This document shows positions 1-20,692 of a stretch of 64,000 nt of DNA, piece by piece. The DNA lies in assembly GCA_028287105.1 (NCBI GenBank), contig JAQBQH010000344.1, positions 26-64,025 of the forward strand, given 5' to 3'. How positions within the stretch are numbered: the stretch's first letter is position 1; each line of letters opens with the position of its first letter. A program made the position numbers and the translations under genes. Below the pieces are notes generated by a model. It saw only the letters and a program-made list of their open reading frames with translations. It was not told where the DNA came from and searched no databases. Origin of the DNA: Myxococcales bacterium. Lineage in GTDB: Bacteria; Myxococcota_A; Polyangia; Palsa-1104.

Positions 1-179
1 ACGCCGCCGGCCGCTCGTTCGAGATCGGCGAGCGCGGCGCGGGTGCCGTCGCTGGAGCCGCCGTCGACGACGACGACCTCGGCGCGCGTGGCGGCCGCCC
101 GCAGCGCCGCCGCGAGCGCGGGCACCTCGGCCGCCTCGTTGAGCACCGGCACCACCACTGCGACGCCCGCCATGACCAT
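1..179 (-). CDS. Glycosyltransferase family 2, N-terminal part; the gene starts at 179 and runs off the window start
   Basis: The minus-strand translation from the ATG at 177-179 reads MVMAGVAVVVPVLNEAAEVPALAAALRAAATRAEVVVVDGGSSDGTRAALADLERAAGG. This contains the GT-2 hallmark (VVVPVLNE ... VVVDGGSSDGT). It lies 10 nt downstream of the lipoprotein gene stop at 190. Confidence 0.55.
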   Translation of the reverse strand, partial: MVMAGVAVVVPVLNEAAEVPALAAALRAAATRAEVVVVDGGSSDGTRAALADLERAAGG

Positions 180-189
180 CTATTACGGC

Positions 190-1062
190 TCAATAGCGAT
201 TGCGGATCAAGCTGCGCGCGGCTTTCTGGGCGTCGAGGTTCTCGGGCGCCGCTTCGGGCAGCGCGTTGGCGTCGGCGGCGATGACCTCGTCGAGCAGGCG
301 CCGGTAGAGCGCGGCGTCGCGCACGCGCGTGGCGTATTCCTCCGCATAGGCGATGCGCGTCGGCAGATAGGCGGGCGCGGCGGCTACGGCGGCTTCGAAG
401 TGCTCGAGCGCGTCGCGCAGATTCTGGCGCGCCTCCGGCATCTCGCAGTCGAGGATGCCGAGGACGCGGTCCGGCGCGGCCCAACCGATCGAGCGATCGA
501 AGCCGAGCGCGCGCACCGAGGCGACGATGATCCAGGGGCGGCGGTCGAGCAGCGTCGAGGTGCCGTTGGCGATGGCCCAACCGAGGAGCGCCTCGGCATA
601 GAGCGTGAGCGCGGGGGCGTCGGCGGGCTCGGCGTACGAGAAGATCTGCTCCGGACCCTTGCCGCTCTGCGCCGCCTCGCGGAGCTTGGCGTTGCGGGCG
701 GCCATGGCGCGCTCGGCGAAGCTGGTCGCCTCTTCGTAGCGGGCGATGACGGCGCCGCCGAGGCCGGCGCGGCGCAGCGCGACCCGCGCCAGGCGCACCA
801 GGATGGCCGCGTCCGACGGCCGATAGCGCAGAGCGGCGCCATAGGCGCGCGCGGCTTCGTCGAGCTGCTTGGGGTCCTGCCGCTTCTGCCAGGCGCGATC
901 GCCGTCGGCGAGGAGGTCGGAGATGAGCTGGTCGGAGAGATCGCCGAACGGCTCGGCCGGTGCGCGGAAGGCGGCCGAGCGATGCGCAATGCAGCCGCTG
1001 GCGAGCAGCGCAGCGACGGCGAGCATCGCGAAGAGGGGAGGACGATGTGCGTGCGCGGTCAC
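190..1062 (-). CDS. TPR-like lipoprotein, 290 aa
   Basis: Signal peptide plus lipobox (MLAVAALLASGC). The body is helical and Ala/Leu-rich, consistent with TPR/YbgF-like repeats. The start (GTG at 1062, or ATG at 1026) overlaps the stop of the giant TPR gene (1059-1061) in a GTGA arrangement, suggesting translational coupling. Confidence 0.6.
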   Translation of the reverse strand: MTAHAHRPPLFAMLAVAALLASGCIAHRSAAFRAPAEPFGDLSDQLISDLLADGDRAWQKRQDPKQLDEAARAYGAALRYRPSDAAILVRLARVALRRAGLGGAVIARYEEATSFAERAMAARNAKLREAAQSGKGPEQIFSYAEPADAPALTLYAEALLGWAIANGTSTLLDRRPWIIVASVRALGFDRSIGWAAPDRVLGILDCEMPEARQNLRDALEHFEAAVAAAPAYLPTRIAYAEEYATRVRDAALYRRLLDEVIAADANALPEAAPENLDAQKAARSLIRNRY

Positions 1063-4000
1063 GTGAGCGCGAGGGCGAAGGCGACCAGATCGCCGAGCGG
1101 AGAGGTCGTAAGCAGCGCGGCGCGTTCGGCCACACCGGTGCCCTCCGACGGCGCCAGCGCGGTCAAAGCGGCGCGCAGATCGCCGGTGGCGGCGAGGGCC
1201 GCGCGATCGGCCGAGAGTCGCTCGGCGCGGATCCAGTCGGCGGCGGCGGCGGCGGCACGGGAATCGACGACCGCGGCGGCGAGCACCACCTCGAGGCGCG
1301 CGCGCGCCGGCTCCGGTAGCCGCTCGGGATCGAGCTGTAGCTGCGCGAGCTCGGCCTGCCAGGCGCGTACGAACGCGGCAAAGGCGACGCCGCGATCGGG
1401 GGCGCGCAGATCGGGCAAGAAGAGCGCGGCCGCCGCGCGCAAGAGCGCGGCGACGTCGTCCGGCGGGCGACCCTCGACGAGCGGCACGCCGGCGTAGAGC
1501 GCGTACATCGCGCGCGCGGCGGCGAAGCGGGCCACGCCTTCGTCGGCGAGCGTGCGGCGCGCCAGGAGGAGCCGCGGCGGTCGGGTCGGCTCCGCCCAGG
1601 CCGGATCGCGGAGGTCGACGACGACCGCGGCCTCCAGCTCGCGGCTGCCGGTGGCGCGCTCGACGACGGCGCGCAGCTTGTCGGTCCAGGCGGGCGCCGG
1701 ATCGGCGTCGATCTCCGACGGTGCCAGCCCCATGAGCAGCGGCGCCAGCGCGGCCATGGCGTCGTGCAGGGGGCCGATGGCGTCGGGGTGCACGATCGCC
1801 TCGGGCGGCAGCGTGATCGGTTCCGGGGGCCCCAGCTCGCGCAGCCGGATCGCGGCCAGCGAGGCCGGCTCGACAAAGGTGCCGACCGCGTAGTGCACGC
1901 GCGCGCGGGCGATGTCGCCGGCGGCGTCATGCAGTCGCGCCAGCGCCAGCCGGGCGCCGGCGACGAGCGGGCCCGTCGGATCGCCCAGGATCGTCTCGAG
2001 CGCGATCTGCAGATTGCCGCGCCCCTCGGGGCCGAGCGCGCGCGCCGAGGCGCGCAGCGCCGGATCGATCTGCCCGATGGAGAGGATCTTCGCCGCCGCC
2101 AGGAGCTCGGCGAGCCGCGGCGCCGTCGGACGCGCGACCGCCACCACGACCGTGCCGCGCGCTTCGTCGCCGCCGAGCGCCAGCCCCAGCCCCGCTTCGA
2201 TGGCGGCCTCCTCGAGTGGCTGGCCGAGCTGCTCGAGGTCGCGCGCCACGTCCTTGAGCGCCACGAAGTCGCCCTCGGAATAGTAGTAGGCGACGAGGCG
2301 GCGCAAGGTCGGCGCGTGCGTCGGATGCAGGTCGGCCGCTTTGAGATAGGCGTCGTTGGCGCTCTCGAGATCGCCCATGCCGAGGCGCAAGAGCTCGCCG
2401 CGACGGAAGAGCAGCTCGGCGCGCTCGGCCGGCTCGCGCACGAGGCGGGAGAGCCGCGCCAGCGCATCGGCCGACGCCTGCCACTCCTCCTGCTCCATGT
2501 AGATGCGCGCCAGGAGCTCGAGCGCGCGCGCCTCCATCGGCAGCTGCGACAGGACCAGCTCGAGGTAGTTGCGCGCCGCGTCGCGATCGCCGAGCTTGAA
2601 CGCCAGCTCGCCGAGGTGTCGGCGCAGCTCGGTGATGCGCTCGACGGCGTCGAGCGGCAAGAGATCGAGCACTGCGCGCAGCGCCTGAAAGGCGCCCAGG
2701 TCGTCGCTGCGGCCGATGGCCAGTCGCGCCAGCGCCTGATGCGCCGACAGGTTGGAGCCGTTGTGCAGGACGGCCTGCTCGTAGAAGGCGCGCGCCTCCT
2801 CGAGGTCGCCCGCCTCTTCGGCCAGCTCGGCGCGACGCCGGGAGACCTCGTCGGCGCCGAGCGACGACGGGCGGTCGCCGAGCGCGGAGTAGAGCGCGCG
2901 CGCCCGCGAGACGTGGCGCGTGCGATAGGAGAGGTCGGCGAGCGCGTCGAGCGCCGTGGTGTGCTCGGGCTCGGCGATGAGCGCGGCTTCGTAGTCGGAG
3001 GCGGCGGCGGCGACGTCGTAGAGCTCGGTCTCGGCGATGCGGCCGGCCTCGAAGCGGCGCTCGGCCCGCTCGGCGTGGTCGCTGATGGCGGCGGCGCGCG
3101 CGCGCAAGAGCTGGGCGAGGCCGGCGGCGTCGCGGCGCGTCTCGAGGATGTGCTTGCGCGCGATGAAGGCCTCGGCGTCGTCGGGCGCGCGCGCCAGGAG
3201 CTCCTGGCTGCGCACGTCGATCTCGGCGCTGTCGCCCACGCGCACGGCGAGCGAGAGCACGCGGCGCAGGAGCTCCAGGCGCACTTCACCCTCGGGCTCG
3301 ACGGCCAGCCGCTCTTCGAGCCGACGGCGCAGCTCTTCGGGATCGCCCTCGTCCTCGGCGATTCGCAGGAGGCTGTCGTCGGCCTTGCGACCGGCTTCGC
3401 CGCCGATGGCCGCGGCTTCGGCGAGCCGCTGACGCGCGCGCTCGTGGTCGCCGGCATGCTCGTGCAGCTCGCCGGCGCGCGAGAGCGCCTCGGCGCGGGC
3501 CGCCGCCTGATCGACTCCGGTCAGCGTCGCCGCCAGCCGCTCGGCAGAGAGCGCGGCGTCGCGCCAGCGCTGCGCCTCGGCGTAGAGCCGCACGAGGTCG
3601 GCCCACGGCGCGTCGGCCGCGGGCGCGCCGGCGTCGAGGACCAGCTCCGCCGCCTGCTCGAAGTTGCGCAGCGCCGCGGCGCCGTCGAGGATCTTGTCCT
3701 CGAGGAGGTGCGCCATCTCGATGTGCAGGCGTGCCCGCTCGGCGGCGTCGGTGGTGAGCGCCAGCTCGCGATAGCGCTGCTCGGCCGCGAGCGCCCACTC
3801 GCCGCGCGCCTCGGCCATCTCGCGCAGCCCGCGCGCCGCCTCGCGCAGGTTGGGATCGCAGGCGACTGCCTCTTTGTAGGAGCGATAGGCGTCTAGCTCA
3901 CGCTTGAGCTCGTTCTGGAACAGGCGCGCCCGCTGTAGCGCCAGGCGCGCGCGCTCGCGCCGGTCGGCCGTCAGCGCCGCGGCCCGTCCCAGGAGATCGG

Positions 4001-7000
4001 CGTGCCGCTCCGAATCGCCGCGCGCGGCCGCCAGGCGGGCCAGCGCGTCGACGGGGCGGCGGTCGGCCGGATCGAGCGCCGCGGCCAGCTGATAGAGCCG
4101 CTCCGCCGTCACCGAGTCGCCCTCGACGAGCAGCACGTCGGCGGCGTCGACGGCGCAGGCGGCGGCGCGCATCGGCTCGAGGTCGGGCGCATCGGCCGCC
4201 GCGATGAGGTGCTCCAGCGCGCCCGCCAGATCGCCACGCTTCTTGTAGACGTCGGCGAGCGCGGCGTGCGCGCGGCCCACGCGCGGCGTGGTGATGAGCG
4301 CGTGCAGGAACTCGGCTTCCGCCTCGGCGTCGGCGCCGGCCTGCAGCAAAAGCTCGCCTTTGACGATCTTGAGCTGCGACAGCTCGATCTGGGTCTGCGG
4401 GGTCGCCGGCCCGTCGGCGACGAGCTTGATCTCGCGCTCCAGGACGGCGAGCGCGTAGATCGGCTCCGCCGCGGCGCCGTAGGCGATGCGTGCGCGCGCG
4501 GCCAGCTCGCGCTGCTCGGGCTCGCGATCGAAGAGGGCCGCGTAGCGTCGCGCCGCGTCGCCGGCGTGGCCCAGATCGCGCTCCAGCGTCTCGGCCGCCT
4601 CCAGCTCCAGCGCGAGGCGCTCGGCCGGATCGCTGGTCTGGGTCACCTGCGCATCGATTGCGACGACGAGATCGAGAAAGCGGCGCTCGGCACGCAGCAG
4701 CTGCCGTAACCGCGCCGGGTCGAGCGGCATCGGCATCCCCGCCGCACGCGCGCGCTCCACGAACGCGAGCGCCCGCCCGGCGTCGGCGCCGCTCGACAGG
4801 TAGGCCTCGCCGGCAAGGCGCGCCAGCTCGTCGCGCTCGCTGGGGTCGAGCCGCGGATCCTCGAGCGCGGCTTCGAAGAGCGGCGCCGCGTCGGCGTGAC
4901 GACCGTGACGGCCGTACAGCTCCCACAGCGCGCGCGCCGCCTCCAGCGACGGCGCGGCCCCGAGCGACGTGGTCCAGGCGCTCTCCGCCCGCTCCTCGTC
5001 GCCGATGCGCGACGCCAGCCGCCCGAGCTCTCGCGCGTACGCCGCCTGCCGCTCCATCGACGCCCGCGGCAGCTCGCGCTCGAGCCGCGCCATGAGCGCC
5101 GCCGCGTCGCCACCCGCGCGCAGCCGCGAGAGCACGCGATCGCGCGCCGCTTCGTCCGAAGGATCGAGCAGGAGGATCTGCTCGTCGAGCCGCGTCCCCT
5201 CCAGCTCCGACAGATGCGGCACCGCCTCGCGGAGGAGCGTCGCGCGCTCGAGGCCGGTCGCCTGCTCGGCCTGCTTGAGCAGCACCTCGGCCAGCTTGGC
5301 GCCGTCGCCGCGCGCGCGATGCAGCTCGGCGAGCCGCGGCCACGCCTGGTCGGCGCCGAGCTGGACCGCCTGCAACAGCGATTGCTCCTCGTCGATGCTG
5401 TCGCCGCGCTCGTGGGCATGCTCGGCGAGCCGCAGATGCACGCGCGCCGCTTCGTCCGCGGGCACGGCGAAGCGCGCCAGCGCCTCGCGATAATAGTCGG
5501 TCGCCGGCTCATGCTCGCCCGCGTCGTGATGGAAGTCGGCGAGCGGCAGCAGCAGATCGGCGCGCTCGCGATCGGCGGCGAAGGCGCGCGCCAGGCAGCG
5601 CGCACCGCGATCGGGATCGGCGAGCGGACCGAGGTACAGCCGCCCCAGGCGCGCCCACACCTCGGCGTCGGCGGGGCCGAGGGGCAGCGCGCGCTCGAGC
5701 AGCATCGCCGCGCGCGCCGGGTCGGCCAGCCGATCGGCGGCGAGCTGCGCCGCGCGCAGGTACATGCCGCGCGCCTCGGCGGGCGGTTTGCGTACCGCCT
5801 CGTCGGCGAGACGCGCCGCCAGCTCGTCGAGCCGACCGGTCGCTTCCAGCGCCCGCTCCAGCGTCTCCGACGAGCCGGGCAGCTTCCACAAGAGCGTGAC
5901 CACCTCCTGGAACGCACCGCGCTCGGCGTACAGCTCGGCCAGGTGGCGCAGATCGGCCGGCGTCGCGCCACCCTCTTCGCGCAGCCGCTCGAGCGCCGCC
6001 TCGGCCGCTCGCGGGTCGCCCGCGCGGAGGAGCGCCGCCTGCGCGCGCAAGAGGTCGCTGCGCAGCGGCGCCAGATCGGGGAACGGCTCCGATTCGGACA
6101 GCGCCCGCTCGACGGCGGCGCGCGCCCCGGCCAGGTCGCCCAGGCGATCGCGCAGCAGGCTGGCGCGCGCGGCGGAGATCTGGGCGCGGCGGCGCGGATC
6201 GTCGATGCGCTCCCACGCCGCCTGCAGCGCGCGCGCCGCGCCGTAGGGATCGCCTTCGCGTGCGAGGCCCAGCGCCGCCCCGACGTAGGCAGGATCGAGC
6301 GCCAGCGCCGACTCGTAGCGCGCCGCCGCCTCCGGCCCATGCATGCGATCGCCGAGCGCCACCAGCACCTCGGCCGTCGGTGACAGGGTAGCCGCGCGTT
6401 CGAGCGCCAGGCGCTCCTCGTCGCTCCCCGGCGGCAGGTCGCCGGCCACGGTGGCGAACAGCCAGGCGCCGTCCTCGACGGCAAGTCGCGGCGCCAGCTC
6501 GTCCGCGAGCGCCAGGATGGCCGCGGGCGACAGCCCGTTCATCGCCCACGCCAGCGACTCGGCATCGCGCGCATCCTGGGCCAGCGCCTCGATCGCGGCG
6601 GCGCGCGCCTCGCTGGCACGACCGGCGCGGAAGGCCGCCTCGGCGCGCTTCTTCGGCGGTGCCGCCGCGCCGGCGCGATGATAGGCCGCCGCCGCGCGCT
6701 CGCCGTCGCCGAGCGCCTCCCAGGTGCCGGCGAGCAGCACCCAGCCGTTGCCGTCGAGCGTGCCCAGCTCCGCCGCGCGGGTGAGCGCGCGCGCCGCCTC
6801 GGCCGGCTGGCCGCGCGAGGAGAGCAGGGTACCGTAGGCGCGGTGCGCCGCGCCCACGTCGGGCGCCACCTCGATGACCTCGCGCAGCCGCGCCAGCGCC
6901 GCGTCGCTGTCGCCGGCCTTGGCCAGCACCGTCGCCACCTCGATGCCGAGCTCCGCTTCGCGTGCCGGCCCTTCGAAGGTGCGCCGCGCGATGCGCAAGA

Positions 7001-10000
7001 GCCGCTCGAGCGCCGCCAGCTGCCCCGCCGCGTTGCCGCGCGCGCGCTCCAGATCGATCAGCACCAGCGCCGCGTCGCGATCGTCGGGATCGAGCTCCAG
7101 CGCCCGTCGCGCCAGCTCCTCCGAGGAGCTCGAGCGATGCGCCGCCGCCACGCGCAACAGGCGCCGCGTCGCCCAGCGCTCGCTCGACTCGTCGTGCGCC
7201 GCCGCCGCGCGCGCCCGCAGCTCCTCGAGCGCCGGTGCCGCCTGCGCCAGCGTCCCGCGCGCCTCCTCGATCTCGGCGCGCAGCTTGAGCGCCGCGTCGG
7301 GCGCCGTGGTCGGCACCAGATCGCGTAGCAGCGCCAGCGCTCCGTCGAGATCGCCGCGCGCATGCCGCGCCCGCGCGCGCTCGGCCACCGCCAGCGAGCG
7401 GGCTGCGCCGTCCTCGGTCAGCTCCGCCAGCCGCCCGAGCAGCAGATCCTCCTCGGCGGCATCGCCGCGGCCGCGCGCCAGCGCCAGCAGGCTCTGCAGC
7501 GCCACGCGGCTCTTCGGCTCCACCTCGAGCGCCTTGTGCAGCACCGCGCGCGCGCGCTCGGGGTCGTTCAGTCGATCGTGCGCCAGGTGCGCGATCTCGA
7601 CGTAGAGCGCCTCGGCTTCACCGCGCCGCCCGTCGGCCGCGTGGCGCTCCGCCAGCCGCGTCAGGAGCTGCGCCAGCGGCTGCCATTCGTTGCCGTTGCG
7701 CAAGAGCGCCGCCAGTCGGTTCCAGGCCGCCGCCGACGACGGCCTGAGCGCGATCAGCTGCTCGTACGCGTGGACCGCCGCGCGCAGCTCGCCGAGCGAC
7801 TCGAGCAGCGCCGCCCGTCGGAACAGGAGCTCGACGATGACGTCGAAGTCGGTCTCGACCTCGGCGCGCACGGCCAGGAGCTCGGCCAGCTCGCGCGATC
7901 CACCGCGCGCCGCCAGCGCCTGATCGATCACCGCGAGCGCAATCCGTTCGCGCGGTGCCAGCGCCAGCGCCTTGCGCGCCGTGCGCTCGGCCTCTTCGCG
8001 CATTCCCGTCGCCGCGTAGAGCTCGGCCAGCCGCGCCAGCGTCGGCGCCGCCGCCTCCGGCTCGACCGGATCGGCCGCCAGCGCCGTCAGCTTCTCGAGC
8101 GCCGCCCGCTCGTCTTCGGTCGCGCCGCGCGCCCGCGCATCGCCCGCCAGCCACGTCAGCGCCGGCCGGAACGCCGCGTCGAGCTCCAGCGCCCGCGCGT
8201 AGGCCGCGCGAGCCGCGTCGGGACGCCCGAGCTCCGCCTGCAGCGCCGCCAGGCGGCCCAGGATCGCTTTCTGCTCGGTGGGCCGCTTCGCCGTCGCTGC
8301 CACTTTGCGCCCGAGCACCTGCGCCACGCCTTCGAGGTCCTGCGCCTCGGCCGCCAGCGCCTCCAGCGCGTCGAGCGCGGTGATCTGCAACGGGTCGAGC
8401 CCGAGCGCCCGCTCGTAGCCGGCGAGCGCCTCCTGGCGGCGTCCGGCGCGCTTGCGCCAGATCTCGGCGGCCACGACGAGGCGGCCGGCACGCACGGTGT
8501 CGGGCTCGTTGGTGCTCGGATCGTCGGCAGCGCGCAGCTGCGCCTCGGCTTCGGCGTGGAAGTCGCCGAGCGAATGGAAGATGCCGGCGAGCGCGTTGTG
8601 CGCCCGCACCGCGTCGGCCGCGTGCGCGCCTGCCGTCAGCGCCGCCTGGTAGAAGGGCACCGCCTCGTCGGCACGCCCCTGACGCTCGGCGATCTCGCCG
8701 AGGCGCAGCGCGCGCTCGCCCCGCGGCTGTAGCCCGCGCGCGAACAGCGGCTCGAGCGCCGCCCGCGCCTCGTCCCACAGCTTGAGCGCGTAGGCGACCT
8801 CGCCGAGACCCACGCGCGCCTGCACGTCGTCATCGGGCGGCGAAATGGCGAGCGCCCGCCGATAGCTCTCGAGCGCGTCCGACATACGTGACAGCCGCGC
8901 CCGCGCCGCGCCCTGCGCTGCCAGCGCCCGCGCCCGCCCCGGATCGTCGTCGCGCAGCTCGGCCAGCTTGCCGAGCGCCGCCTCGAGGCCGCGGTCGTCG
9001 CCCTGACGCATGAGCACGTCGGTGATGAGCTCGACCGCGCGCCGCTCGTCGACGTCGCGCAGGGTCTCGCCGATCAGCTCCTCCAGCAGCGCCCGCGCGC
9101 CGTCGAGATCTCCGTCGGCGGAGCGCAGCTCGGCCAGCCGCAGCCGCGCCGACGGATCGCCGCCCACCGCCGCCAGCCGCTCGAGCGCCGCCCGCAGATC
9201 GCCGCCCCGCCCGAGCGCCGCGTAGGCCTGCGCCATGACCGCCGCCGCCGCCGCCGGGAACGAATTGGAGACCTCCTCGGCCGCCGCCGCCGCCTCTTCG
9301 TAGCGCTCGAGCCGCGCCAGCACCTCGGCCTGCCGCAGCTTGGCGCGCCGGTCACCCCCGTCGGCCAGCTGCGAGCAGAGCCGCTCGAGGTCGTCGAGCC
9401 GACCGTCCTCCTCGGCCAGCTCCACCGCCAGCTGTAGCGCCGCCGTCGACGGCACGATCGCCAGCGCCCGCTCGACGTAGGCCCGCGCACCGTGCTGATC
9501 GTGCAGCGCCTCCCGCGCCAGCCGCGCCAATGCCACCAGGAGGTTGGCGCGCGTCGGATCGTCGTGCGTCTCCTCGGCGCGCTCGATCGCGTCCTGGTAG
9601 GCGGCCACCGCGTCGTCGAGCCGGCCCAGGCGCGCCAACAGCTCGGCCGTCCGCTCGAGCGCGGCCAGATCCGTCGACGCCGCGCGCAGCGCCGCATGGG
9701 CGTGGCCCAACGCCGCCTCGACGTCGCCTTCGGCCTCCGCCAGCACCGACGCGCGCAGCTCCAGCGCCGCCCGCGCGCCGCCCTCGAGCAGCGCCGCCGC
9801 CTTGCCGAGCGACTCCCGCGCGCGCTTGCCGTCGCCGGTCGCCTCGAGCGTGCGGGCATACAGCTCCCACAGCTTGGCCTCGCCCTCCTGCCCGCGCAGC
9901 ACCCGCTCCAGCTCGTCGCGCGCGCGCACTGGATCGTGCAGCTCGTCGAGCCATACCCGCGCGATACGCCCGCGCACCTCCGCCTCGACCACGGGATCGT

Positions 10001-11210
10001 TGGTCTGCGTCAGCCGCCAGCGCTCGAGACGCAACAGATCCTGCCAGCGTCCGTCGGCGGCATAGGCCGCGCACAGGAGCGTGGCCGCCTCCGAGTCGTC
10101 GCGCGCGCCGGCGAGCGTCTTCTCCAGCCACGGGATCGCCTCGCGCGGCGAGACTCGCGCCAACAGCTCGCCGGCACGCAGCGCCGCCGCGCGGGCGTCG
10201 TCCTTTTCACCCGCCGCCTCGGCCAGCTCCGCCAGCTTGACGTAGCGCGCCGCCGCCGTCGACGACAGGCCGCGCTCCGCCTCGATGGCCGCGAGCGCAT
10301 GCAGCGCCTGCGGCCGCTCGGGAAAGTCGGCCACCAGCCGCGCGCCCAGCGTCTCCGCCTCGGGCCAGCGCGCCGGCATGGCCGCCAGGATCGCCAGCTG
10401 GCGCTCCGCCGCCTCCGGCCCCGTCCAGCTGCGGGCGATCCGGCCCCACGCCTCGACGGCGCCCAACAGATCGCCGCGCGCGAGGAGCGCATCCGCCGCG
10501 CGCGTCTCCTCGTCGCCGAGGTCCGGCTCGACCGCAGCCGCCGTGCCCGCGCCATAGCGCAACACGATCGCGCCCTCGTCGACGCGCGCCTCGAGCAGCG
10601 CCGCCTCTTGGTAGCGCGGCAGCCGCCAGCCGGCCGGCGGCAGCGTCTTCCACAAGAGAAGCTCGAGCGGGTTGAACAGCACCTCGCCCGTGCCCTGCAC
10701 CGACAGCGCGTGCGGCGCGCCGTTGGGCTCGGCGCCGAGACCGAAGGCGATGCCGAGGCCCACCAGCGGCGCCGGCGCCGGCAGGTATCCATAGAGGCGC
10801 ACGTCGCCGATGCGGGCGCGCAGCCGCTGGCCGCCCGCCGGCTCCAGCGTCACGCGCGCCGTCACCACCGCCGTGCCGTCGCCCATGCGGGCGCGCGCGG
10901 CCAGCTCGATGCGCCCGGGCACGAGCCGCGCCTTGAGCTGCGTCAGCCCCAGGCGGCCAAGCCGCGTCCGCCCGTCGAGCCACGCCTGCAGCTTGTCCGC
11001 CTCGACGCGCAGCGCCGCCGCGCCCAGCTCGCAGCGACGGTTCTGGAACCGCGCCGTCCCGCCCGAGGCGTCGAAGGGAAAGCGCAGATTGGGAACGGTC
11101 AGCTCGAGCCGCTCGATGCCGACCAGATCGAACAGCGTCTGCGCGCCGAGGCCGAGCACCCCCCGGCCGTCGACGAACTTGAGCGCGAAGTCGAGCGGCT
11201 GCGCGCTCAT
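1059..11210 (-). CDS. Giant tetratricopeptide-repeat protein, ~3383 aa, with no signal peptide
   Basis: A single uninterrupted minus-strand ORF with high GC3. The ORF-track start at 12185 is rejected because it overlaps the upstream SBP gene and gives Arg-rich junk. The real start is the ATG at 11208-11210 (MSAQPLDFALKFVDG...), which overlaps the TGA of the upstream gene by 1 nt (TGATG). About 290 aa of non-repeat N-terminal domain is followed by >3000 aa of TPR-like helical repeats (recurrent A..Y..AL..P.....AL..LA patterns). Confidence 0.8.
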   Translation of the reverse strand: MSAQPLDFALKFVDGRGVLGLGAQTLFDLVGIERLELTVPNLRFPFDASGGTARFQNRRCELGAAALRVEADKLQAWLDGRTRLGRLGLTQLKARLVPGRIELAARARMGDGTAVVTARVTLEPAGGQRLRARIGDVRLYGYLPAPAPLVGLGIAFGLGAEPNGAPHALSVQGTGEVLFNPLELLLWKTLPPAGWRLPRYQEAALLEARVDEGAIVLRYGAGTAAAVEPDLGDEETRAADALLARGDLLGAVEAWGRIARSWTGPEAAERQLAILAAMPARWPEAETLGARLVADFPERPQALHALAAIEAERGLSSTAAARYVKLAELAEAAGEKDDARAAALRAGELLARVSPREAIPWLEKTLAGARDDSEAATLLCAAYAADGRWQDLLRLERWRLTQTNDPVVEAEVRGRIARVWLDELHDPVRARDELERVLRGQEGEAKLWELYARTLEATGDGKRARESLGKAAALLEGGARAALELRASVLAEAEGDVEAALGHAHAALRAASTDLAALERTAELLARLGRLDDAVAAYQDAIERAEETHDDPTRANLLVALARLAREALHDQHGARAYVERALAIVPSTAALQLAVELAEEDGRLDDLERLCSQLADGGDRRAKLRQAEVLARLERYEEAAAAAEEVSNSFPAAAAAVMAQAYAALGRGGDLRAALERLAAVGGDPSARLRLAELRSADGDLDGARALLEELIGETLRDVDERRAVELITDVLMRQGDDRGLEAALGKLAELRDDDPGRARALAAQGAARARLSRMSDALESYRRALAISPPDDDVQARVGLGEVAYALKLWDEARAALEPLFARGLQPRGERALRLGEIAERQGRADEAVPFYQAALTAGAHAADAVRAHNALAGIFHSLGDFHAEAEAQLRAADDPSTNEPDTVRAGRLVVAAEIWRKRAGRRQEALAGYERALGLDPLQITALDALEALAAEAQDLEGVAQVLGRKVAATAKRPTEQKAILGRLAALQAELGRPDAARAAYARALELDAAFRPALTWLAGDARARGATEDERAALEKLTALAADPVEPEAAAPTLARLAELYAATGMREEAERTARKALALAPRERIALAVIDQALAARGGSRELAELLAVRAEVETDFDVIVELLFRRAALLESLGELRAAVHAYEQLIALRPSSAAAWNRLAALLRNGNEWQPLAQLLTRLAERHAADGRRGEAEALYVEIAHLAHDRLNDPERARAVLHKALEVEPKSRVALQSLLALARGRGDAAEEDLLLGRLAELTEDGAARSLAVAERARARHARGDLDGALALLRDLVPTTAPDAALKLRAEIEEARGTLAQAAPALEELRARAAAAHDESSERWATRRLLRVAAAHRSSSSEELARRALELDPDDRDAALVLIDLERARGNAAGQLAALERLLRIARRTFEGPAREAELGIEVATVLAKAGDSDAALARLREVIEVAPDVGAAHRAYGTLLSSRGQPAEAARALTRAAELGTLDGNGWVLLAGTWEALGDGERAAAAYHRAGAAAPPKKRAEAAFRAGRASEARAAAIEALAQDARDAESLAWAMNGLSPAAILALADELAPRLAVEDGAWLFATVAGDLPPGSDEERLALERAATLSPTAEVLVALGDRMHGPEAAARYESALALDPAYVGAALGLAREGDPYGAARALQAAWERIDDPRRRAQISAARASLLRDRLGDLAGARAAVERALSESEPFPDLAPLRSDLLRAQAALLRAGDPRAAEAALERLREEGGATPADLRHLAELYAERGAFQEVVTLLWKLPGSSETLERALEATGRLDELAARLADEAVRKPPAEARGMYLRAAQLAADRLADPARAAMLLERALPLGPADAEVWARLGRLYLGPLADPDRGARCLARAFAADRERADLLLPLADFHHDAGEHEPATDYYREALARFAVPADEAARVHLRLAEHAHERGDSIDEEQSLLQAVQLGADQAWPRLAELHRARGDGAKLAEVLLKQAEQATGLERATLLREAVPHLSELEGTRLDEQILLLDPSDEAARDRVLSRLRAGGDAAALMARLERELPRASMERQAAYARELGRLASRIGDEERAESAWTTSLGAAPSLEAARALWELYGRHGRHADAAPLFEAALEDPRLDPSERDELARLAGEAYLSSGADAGRALAFVERARAAGMPMPLDPARLRQLLRAERRFLDLVVAIDAQVTQTSDPAERLALELEAAETLERDLGHAGDAARRYAALFDREPEQRELAARARIAYGAAAEPIYALAVLEREIKLVADGPATPQTQIELSQLKIVKGELLLQAGADAEAEAEFLHALITTPRVGRAHAALADVYKKRGDLAGALEHLIAAADAPDLEPMRAAACAVDAADVLLVEGDSVTAERLYQLAAALDPADRRPVDALARLAAARGDSERHADLLGRAAALTADRRERARLALQRARLFQNELKRELDAYRSYKEAVACDPNLREAARGLREMAEARGEWALAAEQRYRELALTTDAAERARLHIEMAHLLEDKILDGAAALRNFEQAAELVLDAGAPAADAPWADLVRLYAEAQRWRDAALSAERLAATLTGVDQAAARAEALSRAGELHEHAGDHERARQRLAEAAAIGGEAGRKADDSLLRIAEDEGDPEELRRRLEERLAVEPEGEVRLELLRRVLSLAVRVGDSAEIDVRSQELLARAPDDAEAFIARKHILETRRDAAGLAQLLRARAAAISDHAERAERRFEAGRIAETELYDVAAAASDYEAALIAEPEHTTALDALADLSYRTRHVSRARALYSALGDRPSSLGADEVSRRRAELAEEAGDLEEARAFYEQAVLHNGSNLSAHQALARLAIGRSDDLGAFQALRAVLDLLPLDAVERITELRRHLGELAFKLGDRDAARNYLELVLSQLPMEARALELLARIYMEQEEWQASADALARLSRLVREPAERAELLFRRGELLRLGMGDLESANDAYLKAADLHPTHAPTLRRLVAYYYSEGDFVALKDVARDLEQLGQPLEEAAIEAGLGLALGGDEARGTVVVAVARPTAPRLAELLAAAKILSIGQIDPALRASARALGPEGRGNLQIALETILGDPTGPLVAGARLALARLHDAAGDIARARVHYAVGTFVEPASLAAIRLRELGPPEPITLPPEAIVHPDAIGPLHDAMAALAPLLMGLAPSEIDADPAPAWTDKLRAVVERATGSRELEAAVVVDLRDPAWAEPTRPPRLLLARRTLADEGVARFAAARAMYALYAGVPLVEGRPPDDVAALLRAAAALFLPDLRAPDRGVAFAAFVRAWQAELAQLQLDPERLPEPARARLEVVLAAAVVDSRAAAAAADWIRAERLSADRAALAATGDLRAALTALAPSEGTGVAERAALLTTSPLGDLVAFALALT

Positions 11211-12226
11211 CAGAAGGCCTCGATTTCGCGATGCTCGGCGCGATAGTCGGCCAGGAGCGACAGCACCCGTTCGATGAGCGAGCGCGGCAGCTGCGGATCG
11301 TTCATGCGCTCGCGCAGTGACCGCGCCTCGTCGAAGAACTGCGCCCGCAGCTGCTGCGACACCGGCACCGTCGTCAGCCCCTGCTTGGCGAAGAGCCCGC
11401 CGAGCAGCGCCTCGTCCTGCGCCCGGCTGGCGTCCTCGAGGTGACCGAGCCCGCGCGCCGCCGCGTGCCGGATGATCGCCTTGTGCTCCTCCGGCAGCGG
11501 ATCGAAGGCGCGGTTGGCGATGAGCACGCAGGCGTCGAGCATCGCCAGCCTGAGCGGCACGAGGTGGCGCGCCTGCGCCGACCACTGAAACGCCAACGCC
11601 GCCGCCGGCGCCGCGATGAAGCCGTCGATCTTGCCTTCGTCGTACAGCCGCGCCGCATCTTGCAGGCTGGCGTGAACCGCCTTGAACCCCATGGCGTCGA
11701 GCGACGGTCCGAGCGTGTTGTCGACGTCCCAGGTCCACAGCGGTGTCGCCTTGAGCTCGGCCAGTGTCCGGATGGGCTTCCGCGCGAACACGAACTCGGG
11801 ACCGACGCTGACGACGCCGAGATTGACGAACCCCGACTTCCTGAACTCCTCGTCGACGCCGGGCTTGAGCCGCCCCATGACGTAGGCCAGCTCGTCGCGC
11901 CCCTGGAACAGCCCCAGGATGCGCATCACGCGCATCGTCGGTGCCAGCCGCTGGCACAACATGCCGCCCGAGAACACGCCGTCGAGCTGGTCGCGCCGGA
12001 TGCGCTCGCCCGCCTGTAGCTCGTCGCCGGCGATGCCCGAGAAGTAGATCTTGAAGCGCACCTGCCCCTTGGTCTCGTTCTCCACCGCGCGCGCGAACGT
12101 GCGGATTTCGCGCGCCCACGCGGTCCCTTCGGGCACCGGCGTGCCCATGCGCAACACGGTCTGCGCGTGCGCCGCCGCCGGCCACGCCAGCACCACGGCA
12201 GCGACGGTGACAAGGAGGGTCCGCAC
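11210..12226 (-). CDS. Periplasmic solute-binding protein, DctP/TRAP-SBP-like, paralog 1, 338 aa
   Basis: Signal peptide MRTLLVTVAAVVLAWPAAAHA. The layout is DctP-like: LRMGTPVPEGTAWARE...FARAVENETKGQVRFKIY..G.AGDEL ... LGLFQGRDE ... KPIRTLAELK. It is 45-65% identical to the four neighbouring paralogs, including the conserved GGMLCQRLAP motif. Confidence 0.7.
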   Translation of the reverse strand: MRTLLVTVAAVVLAWPAAAHAQTVLRMGTPVPEGTAWAREIRTFARAVENETKGQVRFKIYFSGIAGDELQAGERIRRDQLDGVFSGGMLCQRLAPTMRVMRILGLFQGRDELAYVMGRLKPGVDEEFRKSGFVNLGVVSVGPEFVFARKPIRTLAELKATPLWTWDVDNTLGPSLDAMGFKAVHASLQDAARLYDEGKIDGFIAAPAAALAFQWSAQARHLVPLRLAMLDACVLIANRAFDPLPEEHKAIIRHAAARGLGHLEDASRAQDEALLGGLFAKQGLTTVPVSQQLRAQFFDEARSLRERMNDPQLPRSLIERVLSLLADYRAEHREIEAF

Positions 12227-12247
12227 GAGGGCCCCTATCGTATCACG

Positions 12248-13270
12248 TTACCGTTCGCTCTCGACGGACCGATGGATGGCGCGGTAATCGGCCAGGAGCC
12301 CGAGGACGCGCTGGAGCAGCGCCTCGGGCACCAGCTTGCCGGTCAGCTGCTCGCGCGCCGCCTGCGACGCGGCGAAGAACTCGGCGCGAAACGACTCCGA
12401 AACAGGCACGCGCTTCAACCCCTGGGTCACGAAGAGCTGGCTCAAGAGCTGCTCGTCCTGTGCGCGGCCGAGCTCCTCGAGCTGCGCGATGGCGCGCGCC
12501 CCCGACTGCTTGACCGCGCGCTGCCCGGCGATCGACAGCTGATCGTACGCTCGCGACGTGATGATGATGCAGCCGCGCAGAAAGCTCGGCCGCAAGTCCG
12601 CGTAGTAGTGCGCCTGCGTCGACCACTGGAACGCCAGCGCCCCCGTCGGCACCGCGAGGAAGCCGTCGAACTGCCCCGCTTCGTAGTCGTGGTGCGCGCT
12701 CTCGAGCGAGCGCGGCACCACCGCCAGCCCCATCGCGGTGAGCGTCTGCCGGAACATGTCATCGAGGTCCCAGATCCACAGCTTGGTGTTCTTGAGCTGC
12801 GCCATCGTGGTGATCGGCTCGCGAGAGAAGACGACGTCGGGGCCGATGCCGAGCTCTCCCAGGTTGACGAAGCCCGATCGCAAGAACTCGGCGTCGAGCG
12901 TGCTCTTCAAGCGACCGTTCACGTAGGCCGACTCGTCCCGGCTCTGAAAGAGCCCCACGATGCGGAGCGCGCGCATCGTCGGCGCCAGCCGCTGGCACAG
13001 CATCCCGCCCGAGGCCACTCCGTCGAGCTGCTCGCGCTTGATGCGATCGAGCATCTGCAGCTCGTCGCCGGCGATGCCGCCCAGGTACCACTTCATGCGC
13101 ACCTGGCCATGCGTCAGCTCTTCGATGTCGCGCTCGAACGCCTTGGCTTCGCGCGCCCAGGCGGTACCGGGCGGCGCCGCCGTGGCCATGCGCAACACGA
13201 CCGGCTCCGCCTGTGCGACCGCGCCGACGGCCAGCGAGAGCGCCGCCGCCACCGCCAGCGCTCGCCTCAT
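12248..13270 (-). CDS. DctP/TRAP-SBP-like periplasmic binding protein, paralog 2, 340 aa
   Basis: The 645-aa track ORF was trimmed to the internal ATG at 13268-13270 (MRRALAVAAALSLAVGAVAQA signal peptide). This ATG overlaps the paralog 3 stop as ATGA. The body is paralogous to the other four (EPVVLRMATAAPPGTAWARE...). Confidence 0.7.
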   Translation of the reverse strand: MRRALAVAAALSLAVGAVAQAEPVVLRMATAAPPGTAWAREAKAFERDIEELTHGQVRMKWYLGGIAGDELQMLDRIKREQLDGVASGGMLCQRLAPTMRALRIVGLFQSRDESAYVNGRLKSTLDAEFLRSGFVNLGELGIGPDVVFSREPITTMAQLKNTKLWIWDLDDMFRQTLTAMGLAVVPRSLESAHHDYEAGQFDGFLAVPTGALAFQWSTQAHYYADLRPSFLRGCIIITSRAYDQLSIAGQRAVKQSGARAIAQLEELGRAQDEQLLSQLFVTQGLKRVPVSESFRAEFFAASQAAREQLTGKLVPEALLQRVLGLLADYRAIHRSVESER

Positions 13271-14301
13271 CGTCGCGAGTCGCCCTGGAAGGCCCGATGC
13301 TCGGCGCGATAGTCGGCGAGAAGGCTGAGCACCCTTTGCAACAGCGCCGCCGGCACCAGCCGCGCCGCGATCTGCTCGCGCACCGCGCGCGCCTGGGCGA
13401 AAAAGTCGGCGCGGAACGCCTCCGACACCGCCGTCTTGGTGAGCCCCTGCTTGGCAAACAGGCCGCCGACGAGCTGCTCGTCCTGACGCCGGCCCAGCTC
13501 CTCGAGCTGCAAGATGCCCTTGCCCGCGGTCTGCAGCAGCGCGCCGCGCTGCTCGAGCGACAGGGCATCGAAGGCGCGCGTCGACATGAGGATGCACGAG
13601 CGCAGGAACGAGACGCGCAGATCGCTGACGTAGCGCGCCTTGGCCGACCACTGAAATGCCAGCGCCGCCGTCGGCACCGCCAAAAAGCCGTCGACGCGTT
13701 TTTCGTCGTAGGCGCGCTCGGCATCGTCGATGCGCGTCGGCACGACCGGCACACCGAGGAGCGGCCACGACGCGCGAAAGACCTGGTCGAGCTCCCAGAT
13801 CCAGAGGCGGGCCTTCTTCAGATCGTCCATCGACATGATCGGCGTGCGCGAGAAGATGAGATCGGGCCCGATGCCGACCTCGCCCAGGTTGACGAAGCCG
13901 GCCTTGTGAAACTCGTCGTCGAAGATCGGCTTGAGACGACCCGCCACGTAGGCCGATTCGTCGCGCGTTTGAAAGAGCCCGACGATGCGCAGGACCCGCA
14001 TCGACGGCGACAGCCGCGTGCACAAGGTGCCGCCGGAGGCGATGCCGTCGAGCTGATCTTTGCGCACGCGCTCGGCCATCTGCAGCTCGTCGCCGGCGAT
14101 ACCGCCGAGGTACCACTTGGTCAGCACCTGGCCGTCGGTGCGCGTCGAGAGATCCTCGGCGATGGCGCGGGTGATGCGGGCCCATTCGGTGCCGCCGGGG
14201 GCGATGGTGCCCATGCGCAGGGTGGTGGGCTCGGCGTGGGCGATGCCGGCGACGGCGACGGCGATGGCGACGACTACGAGCTGCGTTCGAAGGATGGCCA
14301 A
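13267..14301 (-). CDS. DctP/TRAP-SBP-like periplasmic binding protein, paralog 3, ~344 aa
   Basis: The track ORF start at 14490 would overlap paralog 4 by 185 nt. The likely start is the TTG at 14299-14301, giving the signal peptide (L/M)AILRTQLVVVAIAVAVAGIAHA, 4 nt after the paralog 4 stop. The body reads EPTTLRMGTIAPGGTEWAR... Confidence 0.6.
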   Translation of the reverse strand: MAILRTQLVVVAIAVAVAGIAHAEPTTLRMGTIAPGGTEWARITRAIAEDLSTRTDGQVLTKWYLGGIAGDELQMAERVRKDQLDGIASGGTLCTRLSPSMRVLRIVGLFQTRDESAYVAGRLKPIFDDEFHKAGFVNLGEVGIGPDLIFSRTPIMSMDDLKKARLWIWELDQVFRASWPLLGVPVVPTRIDDAERAYDEKRVDGFLAVPTAALAFQWSAKARYVSDLRVSFLRSCILMSTRAFDALSLEQRGALLQTAGKGILQLEELGRRQDEQLVGGLFAKQGLTKTAVSEAFRADFFAQARAVREQIAARLVPAALLQRVLSLLADYRAEHRAFQGDSRR

Positions 14302-14305
14302 GCCA

Positions 14306-15334
14306 TCACCGTTTCTCTGCGCGATGATTGTTCCGATACTCGGCCAGCCACTCGGAGACTTTGTCGAGGAGCCCGGGCGGCGCCAGCTTCTCGACCGACT
14401 TGAGCGCGTCGCGCGCGGCGGCATTGAACTCCGCCTGCAGCGTCGGCGACGCGGGCATCGCCTGTAATCCCTGGCGCGCGAACAGCCCACCGAGGAGCAT
14501 CTCGTCGCTCATCCGCGCGGTCTCTTCGACGCGGACCTGCAGCTTGGCGGCGGCGCTCGTGATGAGCGCCTGGTCGTCGTGCCCGAGCGTGTCCCAGGCG
14601 CGCCGCGACACCAGCATGCAGCCGGCCAGGTAGCCGACGCGCAGGTTGGTCACGTAGCGCGTCTGCGCCGACCACTGAAATGCCAGCGCCGCCGACGGCA
14701 CGCTGATGAAGCCGTCGATCTTACCCTCGTCGTAGGCGCGCCCCGATCCCTCGACCGGCAGCGGCGCCGGCGCCAGCCCCATGGCGAAGAGCTGCGTCTT
14801 CAAGACCTCGTCGAGACCCCACATCCACGGGTGCAGCCGCTTGAGATCCGCCATCGTCCTGACCGGCGTGCGCGAGAAGATGACCGAGAAGCCCATGCCC
14901 GCCTCGGCGACGTTGACGTAGCCCGCCTTGTCGAACTCGGCGTCGACGATGGGCTTGAGCTTCTGCAAGATGTAGCTCGCCTCGCCGCGGTCGCGAAAGC
15001 GCGCCACGGTGCCGGCGGCGCGCAGCGACGGCGCCAGGCGCTGGCAGAGCATGCCGCCCGAGAGGATGCCGTCGAGCTGATCGCGCTGTACGCGGTCGTG
15101 CATGGCCAGCTCGTCACCGGCGATGCCGGAGAGGTACCATTTCACCAGCACCTGCTCTCGCGTCGAGGCGGCGATCTCGCGGCCGGCGGCGTGCAGCTCG
15201 CGCGCCCAGGCGCTGCCCTCGGGGGTCACCGACGCCATGCGCAGCGTCTGCGGATCGGCGGCCGAGGCAGCCGGCGCGAACGCCAGCGCTGCGGCGATCA
15301 GCCCCGCTGCCAGCGTCCCCCCTGGCGCGGTCAT
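14306..15334 (-). CDS. DctP/TRAP-SBP-like periplasmic binding protein, paralog 4, 342 aa
   Basis: The 687-aa track ORF was trimmed to the ATG at 15332-15334 (MTAPGGTLAAGLIAAALAFAPAASA signal peptide), which overlaps the paralog 5 stop as ATGA. The body reads DPQTLRMASVTPEGSAWARE... Confidence 0.7.
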   Translation of the reverse strand: MTAPGGTLAAGLIAAALAFAPAASAADPQTLRMASVTPEGSAWARELHAAGREIAASTREQVLVKWYLSGIAGDELAMHDRVQRDQLDGILSGGMLCQRLAPSLRAAGTVARFRDRGEASYILQKLKPIVDAEFDKAGYVNVAEAGMGFSVIFSRTPVRTMADLKRLHPWMWGLDEVLKTQLFAMGLAPAPLPVEGSGRAYDEGKIDGFISVPSAALAFQWSAQTRYVTNLRVGYLAGCMLVSRRAWDTLGHDDQALITSAAAKLQVRVEETARMSDEMLLGGLFARQGLQAMPASPTLQAEFNAAARDALKSVEKLAPPGLLDKVSEWLAEYRNNHRAEKR

Positions 15335-18071: not shown

Positions 18072-18326
18072 CGTATCGACGCGCGAGACTGCTCCCCGCG
18101 CGGATTCCGGCAGCGGCGCTCCCCCCCTGGGCTGCGCTACCTCCTCCGTGGTGCGGGAGAGTTCCTGCTTGTCACTGTCTGATCGCTTTGGCAGGCGCGA
18201 CCCCTCCGCTCGGAAATGGGGGAGGCCCTACTTTACCAGAACAGTCGGAAAAAGAGGAGCGCCGCGGCGACGATTACCCTCCGCGCGGTGAGGAGCGGTA
18301 GCGCGGAGGAGCGTCGTAGGGAGGAC

Positions 18327-19997: not shown

Positions 19998-20068
19998 GCG
20001 GCGCAGACTAGTACGGCGAGATTACTGGGGCAAGTGAGGAAGCGCGCGAAATCGCGCCATTCGCGCGG

Positions 20069-20590
20069 TTACTCTGGAAGCGCGACCTTGAAGTGGATTC
20101 CGGTGATCTCTTCGGTCGACTCGATCTGGTCGTCGGTGACCTCTTCGTATTCGGCCTCCATCTCGACGACCAGCTCGTCGACGTAGGGGCCGCTTGAGCG
20201 CCGCCGATCGAGCTCCCGACGCTCGAAGGCGGCCTCGCGAACGCTCGGGCGGCCGACCGATTCGGCGCGGCGATCGCCCCAGCGCCGGTCGCGCGCCAGC
20301 CGCATCTTGAGGCCGTCGAGGCTGCGCGGCGCCGGCTGCATGCGCTCCGACGCGGCGACGCAGTTGTGGCACAGGACGATCCAGCGGCCGCCGGGCGCGT
20401 TGGCGCGCACGCCCAGCTCCCAGTAGCGCAGGTGATCGAGCCGGCGGTCGTCGCAGCCGGCGCAGGCGCCGCCGACGCCGACGGTGCGCGCCTTGACCCA
20501 AGCGTCGTAGCAGCGGGTGCAGCGTCCGCGTCGCAACACTCCGTCGACGGGAGGTGTTCCACAGCCGCCGCAGCGGACAAGCGTTTCCAT
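20069..20590 (-). CDS. Double zinc-ribbon protein with acidic C-terminal tail, 173 aa
   Basis: Four CxxC pairs (CGGC, CTRC, CAGC, CHNC) and a C-terminal Asp/Glu-rich segment (EMEAEYEEVTDDQIESTEE). No family is recognised. Confidence 0.5.
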   Translation of the reverse strand: METLVRCGGCGTPPVDGVLRRGRCTRCYDAWVKARTVGVGGACAGCDDRRLDHLRYWELGVRANAPGGRWIVLCHNCVAASERMQPAPRSLDGLKMRLARDRRWGDRRAESVGRPSVREAAFERRELDRRRSSGPYVDELVVEMEAEYEEVTDDQIESTEEITGIHFKVALPE

Positions 20591-20692
20591 TCTTCAGCGG
20601 TAAACCCGTTCCACGAAGCGAGCAAATTTTCTGAAGCAGCTGTCAGCCATTGGCCGTTCGCCGTTGGCTACGGAATTGCTCCCTTGACGCGT

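Follow-up and report, generated by a model that had tools for sequence, protein, structure and literature searches.

A Giant TPR Gene Near the Cell-Elongation Operon of a Myxococcales Bacterium and Its Putative Role as a Cytoplasmic Scaffold

A 64,000-nt stretch of DNA from a Myxococcales bacterium (GenBank assembly GCA_028287105.1, contig JAQBQH010000344.1, positions 26 to 64,025; hereafter the window) carries a giant gene whose product consists largely of a tetratricopeptide repeat (TPR) solenoid. The 10-kb open reading frame (ORF) is a real, intact, single gene. Its product is tripartite, with a ~260-amino-acid (aa) beta-rich domain at the N-terminus (N-domain), a ~2,850-aa solenoid of TPR or TPR-like repeats, and a C-terminal alpha/beta domain. 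The gene is the expanded form of a conserved, unannotated family that is restricted, as far as we have seen, to Myxococcota. We judge there to be about an even chance that the protein is a soluble cytoplasmic, membrane-proximal, elongated mega-scaffold, analogous to GltI of Myxococcus xanthus, while any particular client of such a scaffold, whether the elongasome or a kinase pathway, is far less probable.

Identification and Integrity of the Giant Gene

The G+C content at third codon positions (GC3) was 0.87–0.98 in all 300-nt windows of the giant gene, and the probability of 3,383 stop-free codons at the local base composition was ~7e-20. Together with the intact orthologs described below, these values bear out the original prediction, made from the letters of the window, that a single uninterrupted ORF with uniform high GC3 is present. 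That prediction had also placed the gene correctly at 1059–11210, and we correct only its strand, which is minus, with an ATG start at 11210 and a stop codon at 1059–1061 (Table 1). The stop-free frame reaches farther upstream, to 12185–12242, where it overlaps the gene of a DctP-family substrate-binding protein (SBP; gene e in Table 1). In this extension the GC3 signal belonged to the DctP frame, and translation in the giant-gene frame gave Arg/Gly-rich nonsense. We take the ATG at 11210 as the start because it has a GAGG 7 nt upstream, overlaps the DctP stop codon as TGATG, and coincides with residue 1 in the alignment of homologs, which start at the same residue. The plus strand opposite the gene carries a chain of long antisense ORFs between 1341 and 9437 (for example 1341–3896), of up to 852 codons and with GC3 of 0.83–0.90. 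We would read these as compositional mirror images of the Ala/Leu/Arg/Glu-rich coding strand rather than as genes, and they could mislead gene callers.

An ORF of this size might be an assembly artefact or a decaying pseudogene, formed by collapse or expansion of a repeat array or by the fusion of genes through sequencing error. Some support for this explanation comes from L001 and L002, related long-read contigs from ENA (456 kb and 346 kb, respectively), in which the homologous region is split into many called genes, the giant gene alone being cut into five to seven pieces. Both contigs contain frequent frameshifts, with more than 10 frame changes in the giant-gene region. The genes disrupted by them are all those of the locus in L002, the ppiD-like and kinase genes included, and the giant gene, tatT, and one SBP gene in L001. 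We attribute the splitting to indel errors, of which such breakage is typical, because of the number of frame changes and because the neighboring genes in L002 are broken alike. As a result of these split gene calls, database matches to the family are mostly "partial" proteins.

Three independent assemblies, in turn, contained single-frame, full-length, colinear orthologs, namely L003 (3,397 aa, 68% identity to the giant protein), L004 (3,440 aa, 57%), and L009 (3,344 aa, 46%); the giant ORF is therefore not a mis-assembly. Tandem Repeats Finder and a direct-repeat search detected no long or near-identical DNA repeats in the gene, only short matches of 60–80% identity, and self-BLASTP of the protein returned no off-diagonal match at E < 1e-3. 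The repeats are thus old and diverged, with nothing able to collapse. These results, along with the uniform GC3, settle in favor of the ORF the earlier worry about a mis-assembled repeat; they bring the artefact or pseudogene explanation close to refuted, and we regard it as extremely improbable.

Protein Architecture

Pfam models of the TPR clan scored above threshold in six of the ten 340-aa segments of the protein (aa 341–2040 and 2721–3060) and weakly in a seventh (aa 2041–2380), and were absent from aa 2381–2720. Clan scores included 82.5 bits for TPR_8, 66.5 bits for TPR_1, and 44.8 bits for TPR_2, among others, and the solenoid was rich in Ala, Leu, Arg, and Glu. The "thousands of residues" of TPR described in the original prediction were therefore found for the most part, apart from the weak and the unmatched segments. 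A stretch of ~1,470 aa (aa ~1270–2740) had no counterpart in the orthologs of ~1,800–2,090 aa that are linked to mreB, and we refer to it as the lineage-specific expansion. Common to the giant protein and these shorter orthologs were the N-domain, the first ~1,000 residues of the solenoid, and aa ~2744–3120. The most conserved solenoid module (aa ~2744–2990) was matched in most long members, at 43–48% identity to the ~1,800–2,090-aa orthologs and 35% to L027. When the distal module was taken as aa ~2744–3150, 37 matches were obtained, of which ~30 were family proteins of 828–3,444 aa and the remainder C-terminal fragments. The defining features of the family are thus the N-domain, a solenoid whose length differs widely, and this conserved distal module ahead of a globular C-terminal domain. 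Tile-by-tile colinearity with the giant protein was also seen in full-length P0014 (3,282 aa), P0018 (3,444 aa), P0025 (3,356 aa), and P0031 (2,925 aa). Given this position-specific colinearity, the repeats are individually conserved, as specific docking sites would be.

The AlphaFold2 (AF2) model of aa 2960–3383 (predicted local distance difference test score, pLDDT, 90.7; predicted template modeling score, pTM, 0.88) predicted helical hairpins up to ~aa 3125 and, beyond them, an alpha/beta domain in which three strands form a sheet at aa ~3193–3217 ahead of helices. This C-terminal domain had no Pfam match and no NCBIfam model, and the C-terminal 230 aa had no PDB relative by sequence. Foldseek comparison of the model with the PDB gave generic TPR-type matches, none better than E 0.06, from which a fold was not assigned. 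A domain hidden Markov model placed the domain at the C-terminus of P0014, P0018, P0025, and P0031, as well as of the short members P0013 and P0063. The original prediction had described one non-repeat domain, at the N-terminus, which is upheld; this second one had been missed.

The giant protein showed no signal peptide, lipobox, hydrophobic N-terminus, or segment of transmembrane (TM) grade, its highest 19-aa Kyte–Doolittle mean, 1.64, falling at the very C-terminus. A hydrophobic N-terminal segment was missing from all 90 long family members, so a predicted cytoplasmic location characterizes the family as a whole. Hydropathy in the protein and in its relatives thus agrees with the earlier statement that a signal peptide is lacking.

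Family Distribution and Length

An exhaustive phmmer search with the N-domain (aa 1–265) returned 399 cluster representatives at E ≤ 1e-3 and 263 at E ≤ 1e-10 (clusters at 50% identity), in which the domain was N-terminal. The top full-length matches were 50–57% identical. Lengths were taken from the 150 listed representatives, among which 90 were at least 1,000 aa, 42 at least 2,000 aa, and 14 at least 3,000 aa, the longest having 3,927 aa. The 20 clusters that were looked up were all metagenomic; the named ones were called "TPR repeat protein", "hypothetical", or, in one case, "TadD", and where sources were named, these were metagenome-assembled genomes (MAGs) of Polyangia or "Deltaproteobacteria". 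A scan of species-representative genomes with the single narrow pattern [ET][IV]Px[LI][RS]FPFD identified 49 loci, all in MAGs labeled Myxococcales, Polyangia, Myxococcota, Bradymonadales, or "delta proteobacterium". Since this pattern is narrow, the absence of cultured species from the 49 loci does not show that the family is missing from them. When the N-domain, the C-terminal region, and a profile of 29 N-domain sequences were used in word-indexed searches, only about a dozen close, mostly partial MAG proteins were found. Searches of the literature on the M. xanthus locus tags adjacent to mreB and on giant TPR proteins in Myxococcota yielded nothing on the family.

Bradymonadales-type members were 977–1,465 aa long, the mreB-linked orthologs in most Myxococcales MAGs ~1,790–2,090 aa, and the members of the window's subclade 3,280–3,450 aa. 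The ortholog length comparison proposed with the original prediction thus gave a divided answer: a size of ~3,400 aa is kept within the subclade, but it is not a constant of the family, given the shorter mreB-linked orthologs. P0013 (1,435 aa) and P0063 (1,187 aa) combined the N-domain and the C-terminal alpha/beta domain with a solenoid about one third the length of that in the giant form, although the Logan contigs that encode them are short (5.6 and 6.3 kb, respectively) and may be mis-assembled. If the two are complete, solenoid length can vary about three-fold between fixed ends.

N-Terminal Domain

Conservation of the N-domain begins at residue ~5 and includes the motifs LELxIPxLRFPFDxSGGxxRFQxRRC and LPPxGWRLP (LPxxGWRLP in its family form), with P45, D47, G51, G194, W195, and P198 among the invariant or nearly invariant columns. 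The AF2 model of the domain, built on a shallow alignment (pLDDT 72), was predicted to be beta-rich with interspersed helices. The N-domain of the window matched no Pfam or NCBIfam model, and its profile found nothing meaningful among PDB sequences. Foldseek against the PDB gave insignificant START/Bet v 1-like matches with TM < 0.3, and a fold was not assigned from them.

When 75 family N-domains were scanned singly against Pfam (24,736 models), the only recurring non-TPR family was PF11209 (LmeA-like phospholipid-binding, formerly DUF2993), which was matched by eight of the 75 at E 3e-4 to 0.1. The matches came from one of 29 sequences in alignment A2, three of 10 independent divergent loci (E 5e-4, 9e-4, and 0.06; 13.7–20.6 bits), and four of 36 further members (A5; best E 3e-4). 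Three matches for which coordinates were available were colinear over ~135–160 residues and covered profile positions ~53–215 of 217. At least three matches at E < 1e-3 to one model, compared with ~0.08 expected by chance for 75 queries, make remote homology between the N-domain and LmeA likely. We therefore consider the N-domain a likely, but not established, distant relative of LmeA-like lipid-binding domains, in the sense of remote homology and not of membership. DUF2993 proteins have predicted Chorein-N-like and TULIP-like lipid-transfer folds and are anchored outside the cytoplasm (PMC6791001). The original prediction had recognized no motif in this domain, which holds for the curated libraries and is qualified by the recurrent sub-threshold LmeA-like matches in relatives.

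Conserved Genomic Neighborhood

Across 51 related loci, the most widely conserved upstream neighbor was a ppiD-like gene, found upstream of the family gene in 32. In 23, mreB lay upstream in divergent orientation, as a rule together with mreC, mreD, and pbp2. Between the ppiD-like gene and the family gene, 24 loci contained an ORF of ~230–250 aa with about four hydrophobic segments (4-TM) and no Pfam match, for example at 9213–9968 in L008 and at 9298–9987 in L019, where it shares 8 nt with the beginning of the family gene. This conservation of neighbors points to an ancestral setting made up of a ppiD-like gene, a small membrane protein, and the scaffold gene, beside the elongasome operon. 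The window keeps the ppiD-like gene and the divergent mreBCD-pbp2 arrangement, interrupted by kinase and SBP genes that occupy the position of the small 4-TM ORF, which is absent.

Kinase and SBP genes were found only in the nearest relatives of the window. L001 and L002 match the window in gene order; L004 runs from the ppiD-like gene through two SBPs, the kinase, and three SBPs to the giant gene and tatT; in L003 a single SBP is followed by the giant gene and tatT; L005 contains the kinase and an SBP remnant; and L009 is without SBPs and without the kinase. The more distant giant-form relatives L052 and L053 have no tatT downstream. Judging from these gene orders, the kinase/SBP/TatT module is a later, subclade-specific addition. 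The link between the giant gene and the SBP array that the original prediction drew is accordingly present here as coupling by overlap, but it is recent and lineage-specific and does not extend to the family. Upstream of the L043 homolog, two genes (640 aa and 224 aa) resembled gltG/gltH in size, but they proved to be lolCE and lolD, and the resemblance was rejected. In one clade of fen/peat MAGs (L012–L023 and L035), an Asp/Glu-racemase-like gene, 85–93% identical between loci, directly follows the ~1,800-aa family gene; if it is murI, it would be another peptidoglycan-related neighbor.

Operon Around the Giant Gene

The genes from the kinase to tatT are joined, in order, by the junctions GTGA, ATGA, ~4 nt, ATGA, 21 nt, TGATG, and GTGA. 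The stop codon of DctP gene e and the start of the giant gene overlap by 1 nt (TGATG), and the stop codon of the giant gene and the GTG start of tatT overlap by 4 nt (GTGA). The translational coupling noted in the original prediction at these two junctions was confirmed and spans eight genes. Its further suggestion of a stoichiometric complex does not follow, as stop/start overlaps show co-translation only, and the giant protein has a predicted cytoplasmic location, unlike the flanking proteins, which belong to the periplasm.

The five tandem SBP paralogs shared 42–58% pairwise identity and all had signal peptides. Their best PDB matches were to TatP(T)/Tp0957 of Treponema pallidum (for paralog e, 3u65 and 4di3 at E ~1e-10). 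The best PDB match of the TatT lipoprotein was 8g52 (E 2.8e-15), a structure of TatT from the myxobacterium Enhygromyxa salina with palmitate bound; long-chain fatty acids are ligands of TatT proteins (PMC11713862). The receptor kinase is predicted to consist of a cytoplasmic kinase domain, one TM segment, and periplasmic PEGA domains. Neither a DctQ nor a DctM gene was found among the scanned predicted genes of the window, and the five SBPs look like an orphan array that may feed the kinase and not a transporter.

Table 1. Coordinates of the giant gene, its domains, and neighboring genes in the window.
Feature	Residues (aa)	Position	Strand	Evidence and remarks
Giant gene	3,383 aa + stop	1059–11210	minus	ORF and translation; GC3 frame signal; colinear intact orthologs L003, L004, L009
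N-terminal beta-rich domain	1–~260	10431–11210	minus	phmmer, alignments, AF2 model
TPR/TPR-like helical solenoid	~270–3125	1836–10403	minus	Pfam TPR clan, AF2, composition
Lineage-specific solenoid expansion	~1270–2740	2991–7403	minus	Tile mapping of L008, L010, L012, L019 proteins; ortholog lengths
Most conserved solenoid module	~2744–2990	2241–2981	minus	Tile identities; strong Pfam TPR matches
C-terminal alpha/beta domain	~3155–3383	1062–1748	minus	AF2 model
GT2-type glycosyltransferase (start; runs off the window)		~1–180	minus	Few bases past the tatT stop; same order in L001 (PF00535)
TatT-family TPR lipoprotein (tatT), lipobox LASGC		190–1062	minus	PF16811 (TAtT), 48.7 bits, cutoff 26.5
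DctP-family SBP e, signal peptide		11210–12226	minus	PF03480, 81.6 bits; stop overlaps the giant-gene ATG
DctP-family SBP d		12248–13270	minus	PF03480
DctP-family SBP c		13267–14301	minus	PF03480
DctP-family SBP b		14306–15334	minus	PF03480
DctP-family SBP a		15331–16362	minus	PF03480
Receptor Ser/Thr kinase		16359–18227 (stop-to-stop bounds)	minus	Pkinase, 170 bits; PEGA, 101 bits
PpiD/SurA-like membrane-anchored peptidyl-prolyl isomerase		18327–20021	minus	SurA_N_3 and Rotamase domains
mreB-mreC-mreD-pbp2-rodA operon		21950–27488	plus, divergent	Pfam

Several other features of the region were recorded. A 174-aa Cys-rich ORF at 20069–20593 on the minus strand, between mreB and the ppiD-like gene, contains several CxxC pairs, has no Pfam match, and is likely zinc-binding. 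It occupies the same position in L001, L002, L004, L005, L006, and L009 and was not seen in the other Myxococcales loci. A second Ser/Thr kinase gene, whose product has a C-terminal PEGA domain, is located at 56437–58179 on the plus strand, 38 kb from the first. The 100-nt gap between the ppiD-like and kinase genes contains a weak terminator-like hairpin with a T-run (18260–18272, minus strand), which was not used as evidence. No sigma-70-like promoter was found in a scan of positions 1–20000.

Discussion

If the giant protein is a cytoplasmic scaffold, the N-domain would hold it at the cytoplasmic face of the inner membrane through lipid, a membrane partner, or both. In most lineages this partner could be the small 4-TM protein, the ORF of which overlaps the family gene at its start, and in the window's subclade it might be the receptor kinase. 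Envelope proteins or proteins associated with the cytoskeleton would dock at many position-specific sites along the solenoid, in the manner modeled for GltI. In the window's Polyangia subclade, where the solenoid nearly doubled and the gene became embedded in the overlapped kinase/five-SBP/TatT operon, the giant protein would most plausibly serve as a cytoplasmic platform or substrate of a periplasmic sensing module. The kinase is a plausible link between the periplasmic SBP and TatT proteins and the cytoplasmic giant protein because, among the operon products, it alone is predicted to be membrane-spanning. We infer the membrane tethering, the scaffold function, and any link to the kinase or to MreB, and a scaffold, as first proposed, still seems the most reasonable reading. 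The original prediction had left a choice between a scaffold of a signaling system and a cytoskeletal or cell-surface organizer; the conserved ppiD-like, 4-TM, and mreBCD-pbp2-rodA partners favor the organizer over the signaling scaffold as the ancestral role.

A number of observations weigh against the cytoplasmic scaffold. The family is known here as sequence and predicted structure. The other genes of the operon all encode periplasmic or membrane proteins, which sits awkwardly with a cytoplasmic location, and the extracytoplasmic setting of characterized LmeA/DUF2993 proteins is likewise awkward for a cytoplasmic N-domain. The LmeA matches all fell below the Pfam gathering score of 27.3 bits, the window N-domain itself gave none at E ≤ 0.1, and Foldseek returned no significant PDB fold match for either terminal domain. 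The adjacency to mreB may be a housekeeping gene order inherited together with the ppiD-like gene, and Bradymonadales members and some paralogs are found in unrelated contexts, such as lysS-lolCE-lolD in L043. Nor was a feature for kinase docking, such as an FHA domain, detected.

The closest known parallel is GltI (AgmK, MXAN_4863; UniProt Q1D2V1), a cytoplasmic TPR protein of 3,822 aa with a helical C-terminal domain, for which a multi-site scaffold model with six GltG-FHA and two GltJ-GYF binding sites has been presented and which is proposed to cluster motor units (PMC11761067). Compared by description only, the two proteins are alike in their giant size (3,383 vs. 3,822 aa), predicted cytoplasmic location, and design of a TPR solenoid with a C-terminal domain, as well as in their myxobacterial distribution and a genetic or functional tie to MreB-containing machinery. 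The giant protein could thus be an ortholog or paralog of GltI that scaffolds motor units through FHA/GYF binding sites in an Agl-Glt-like focal adhesion. The shared design is consistent with this, as are the report of GltI only in Myxococcales (PMC3169522) and the membership of MreB, which is encoded next door here, in the cytoplasmic gliding platform of M. xanthus (PMC11761067). We nevertheless consider such a relationship unlikely. The GltI gene is located in the G1 glt cluster between gltH and gltJ, with gltD-E-F-G-H upstream, whereas the giant gene is located between the SBP array and tatT; no glt genes flank it or any related locus examined, the neighbors being ppiD-like, mreB, kinase, and SBP genes and, in L043, those named above. 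NCBIfam gave generic TPR-family matches only, with the nearest glt model, GltE, at 28.6 bits against a cutoff of 225, and the 20 looked-up clusters included no cultured myxobacterial source and no Glt name. In the papers cited here on GltI, no N-terminal beta-rich domain is described.

Less likely again is export of the giant protein as a periplasmic part of a TatT/TatP-type lipid-handling system, in which it would form a long TPR bridge or reservoir with a lipid-binding LmeA-like N-domain. Its gene overlaps at both ends with genes of periplasmic proteins of the type found in TatT-associated tripartite ATP-independent periplasmic (TRAP) transporters (TPATs), the DctP-giant-TatT order is kept in L001–L004, and LmeA/DUF2993 (PMC6791001) and TatT (PMC11713862) are both extracytoplasmic lipid binders. 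However, the lack of a signal peptide, lipobox, or TM segment in the protein and of a hydrophobic N-terminal segment in any of the 90 long relatives argues against export, and the N-terminus is conserved almost from its first residues. SBP and TatT genes are not found near most family members, and the giant protein itself has no PF16811 match. The TPAT of T. pallidum (TatT Tp0956, TatP Tp0957, and TatQ-M) resembles the window in the flanking tatT (PF16811, with the E. salina TatT structure 8g52) and in SBPs of that type. It has a single SBP where the window has five, the window has a Ser/Thr kinase at the head of the operon and no DctQ/DctM among its scanned genes, and the giant protein has no counterpart in TPAT systems. 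LmeA/DUF2993 (PF11209), a mycobacterial phospholipid-binding envelope protein, is similarly beta-rich and is related to the N-domain through the remote colinear profile matches. Unlike the giant protein, proteins of the LmeA type are ~270 aa long, bear either a signal sequence or an anchoring TM segment, and have their role outside the cytoplasm (PMC6791001), whereas the LmeA-like domain here is predicted to be cytoplasmic and is fused to ~3,100 further residues.

The cytoplasmic scaffold could be extended to a more specific proposal, which we offer as an improbable one. The family would then be a Myxococcota-wide class of lipid-binding TPR mega-scaffolds tied to the MreB/PBP2/RodA elongasome, in which a solenoid length set by lineage (~1,000, ~1,800, ~3,400, and ~3,900 aa) serves as an envelope spacer or ruler and which, in the window's subclade, is wired to the kinase, five TatP-like SBPs, and TatT. 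If this were true, periplasmic lipid or nutrient status would be coupled to cell-wall growth or cell shape.

To our knowledge, bacteria have few giant scaffold proteins, and a role has been proposed for GltI alone. The present analysis defines a sizeable family (~400 clusters) whose signature N-domain and C-terminal domain have no Pfam or NCBIfam model, and it supplies two handles on that family, a conserved position beside cell-elongation genes and a possible lipid-binding anchor. The one- to four-fold variation in length, with both termini conserved, amounts to a natural experiment on solenoid length. The kinase/five-SBP/TatT operon, with no TRAP membrane subunit, bears on how lipid binders of the TatT/TatP type are used outside transport. 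Should the family indeed organize machinery of the envelope or cytoskeleton, it would go some way toward explaining how growth of the cell wall, cell shape, and motility on surfaces are coordinated in myxobacteria.

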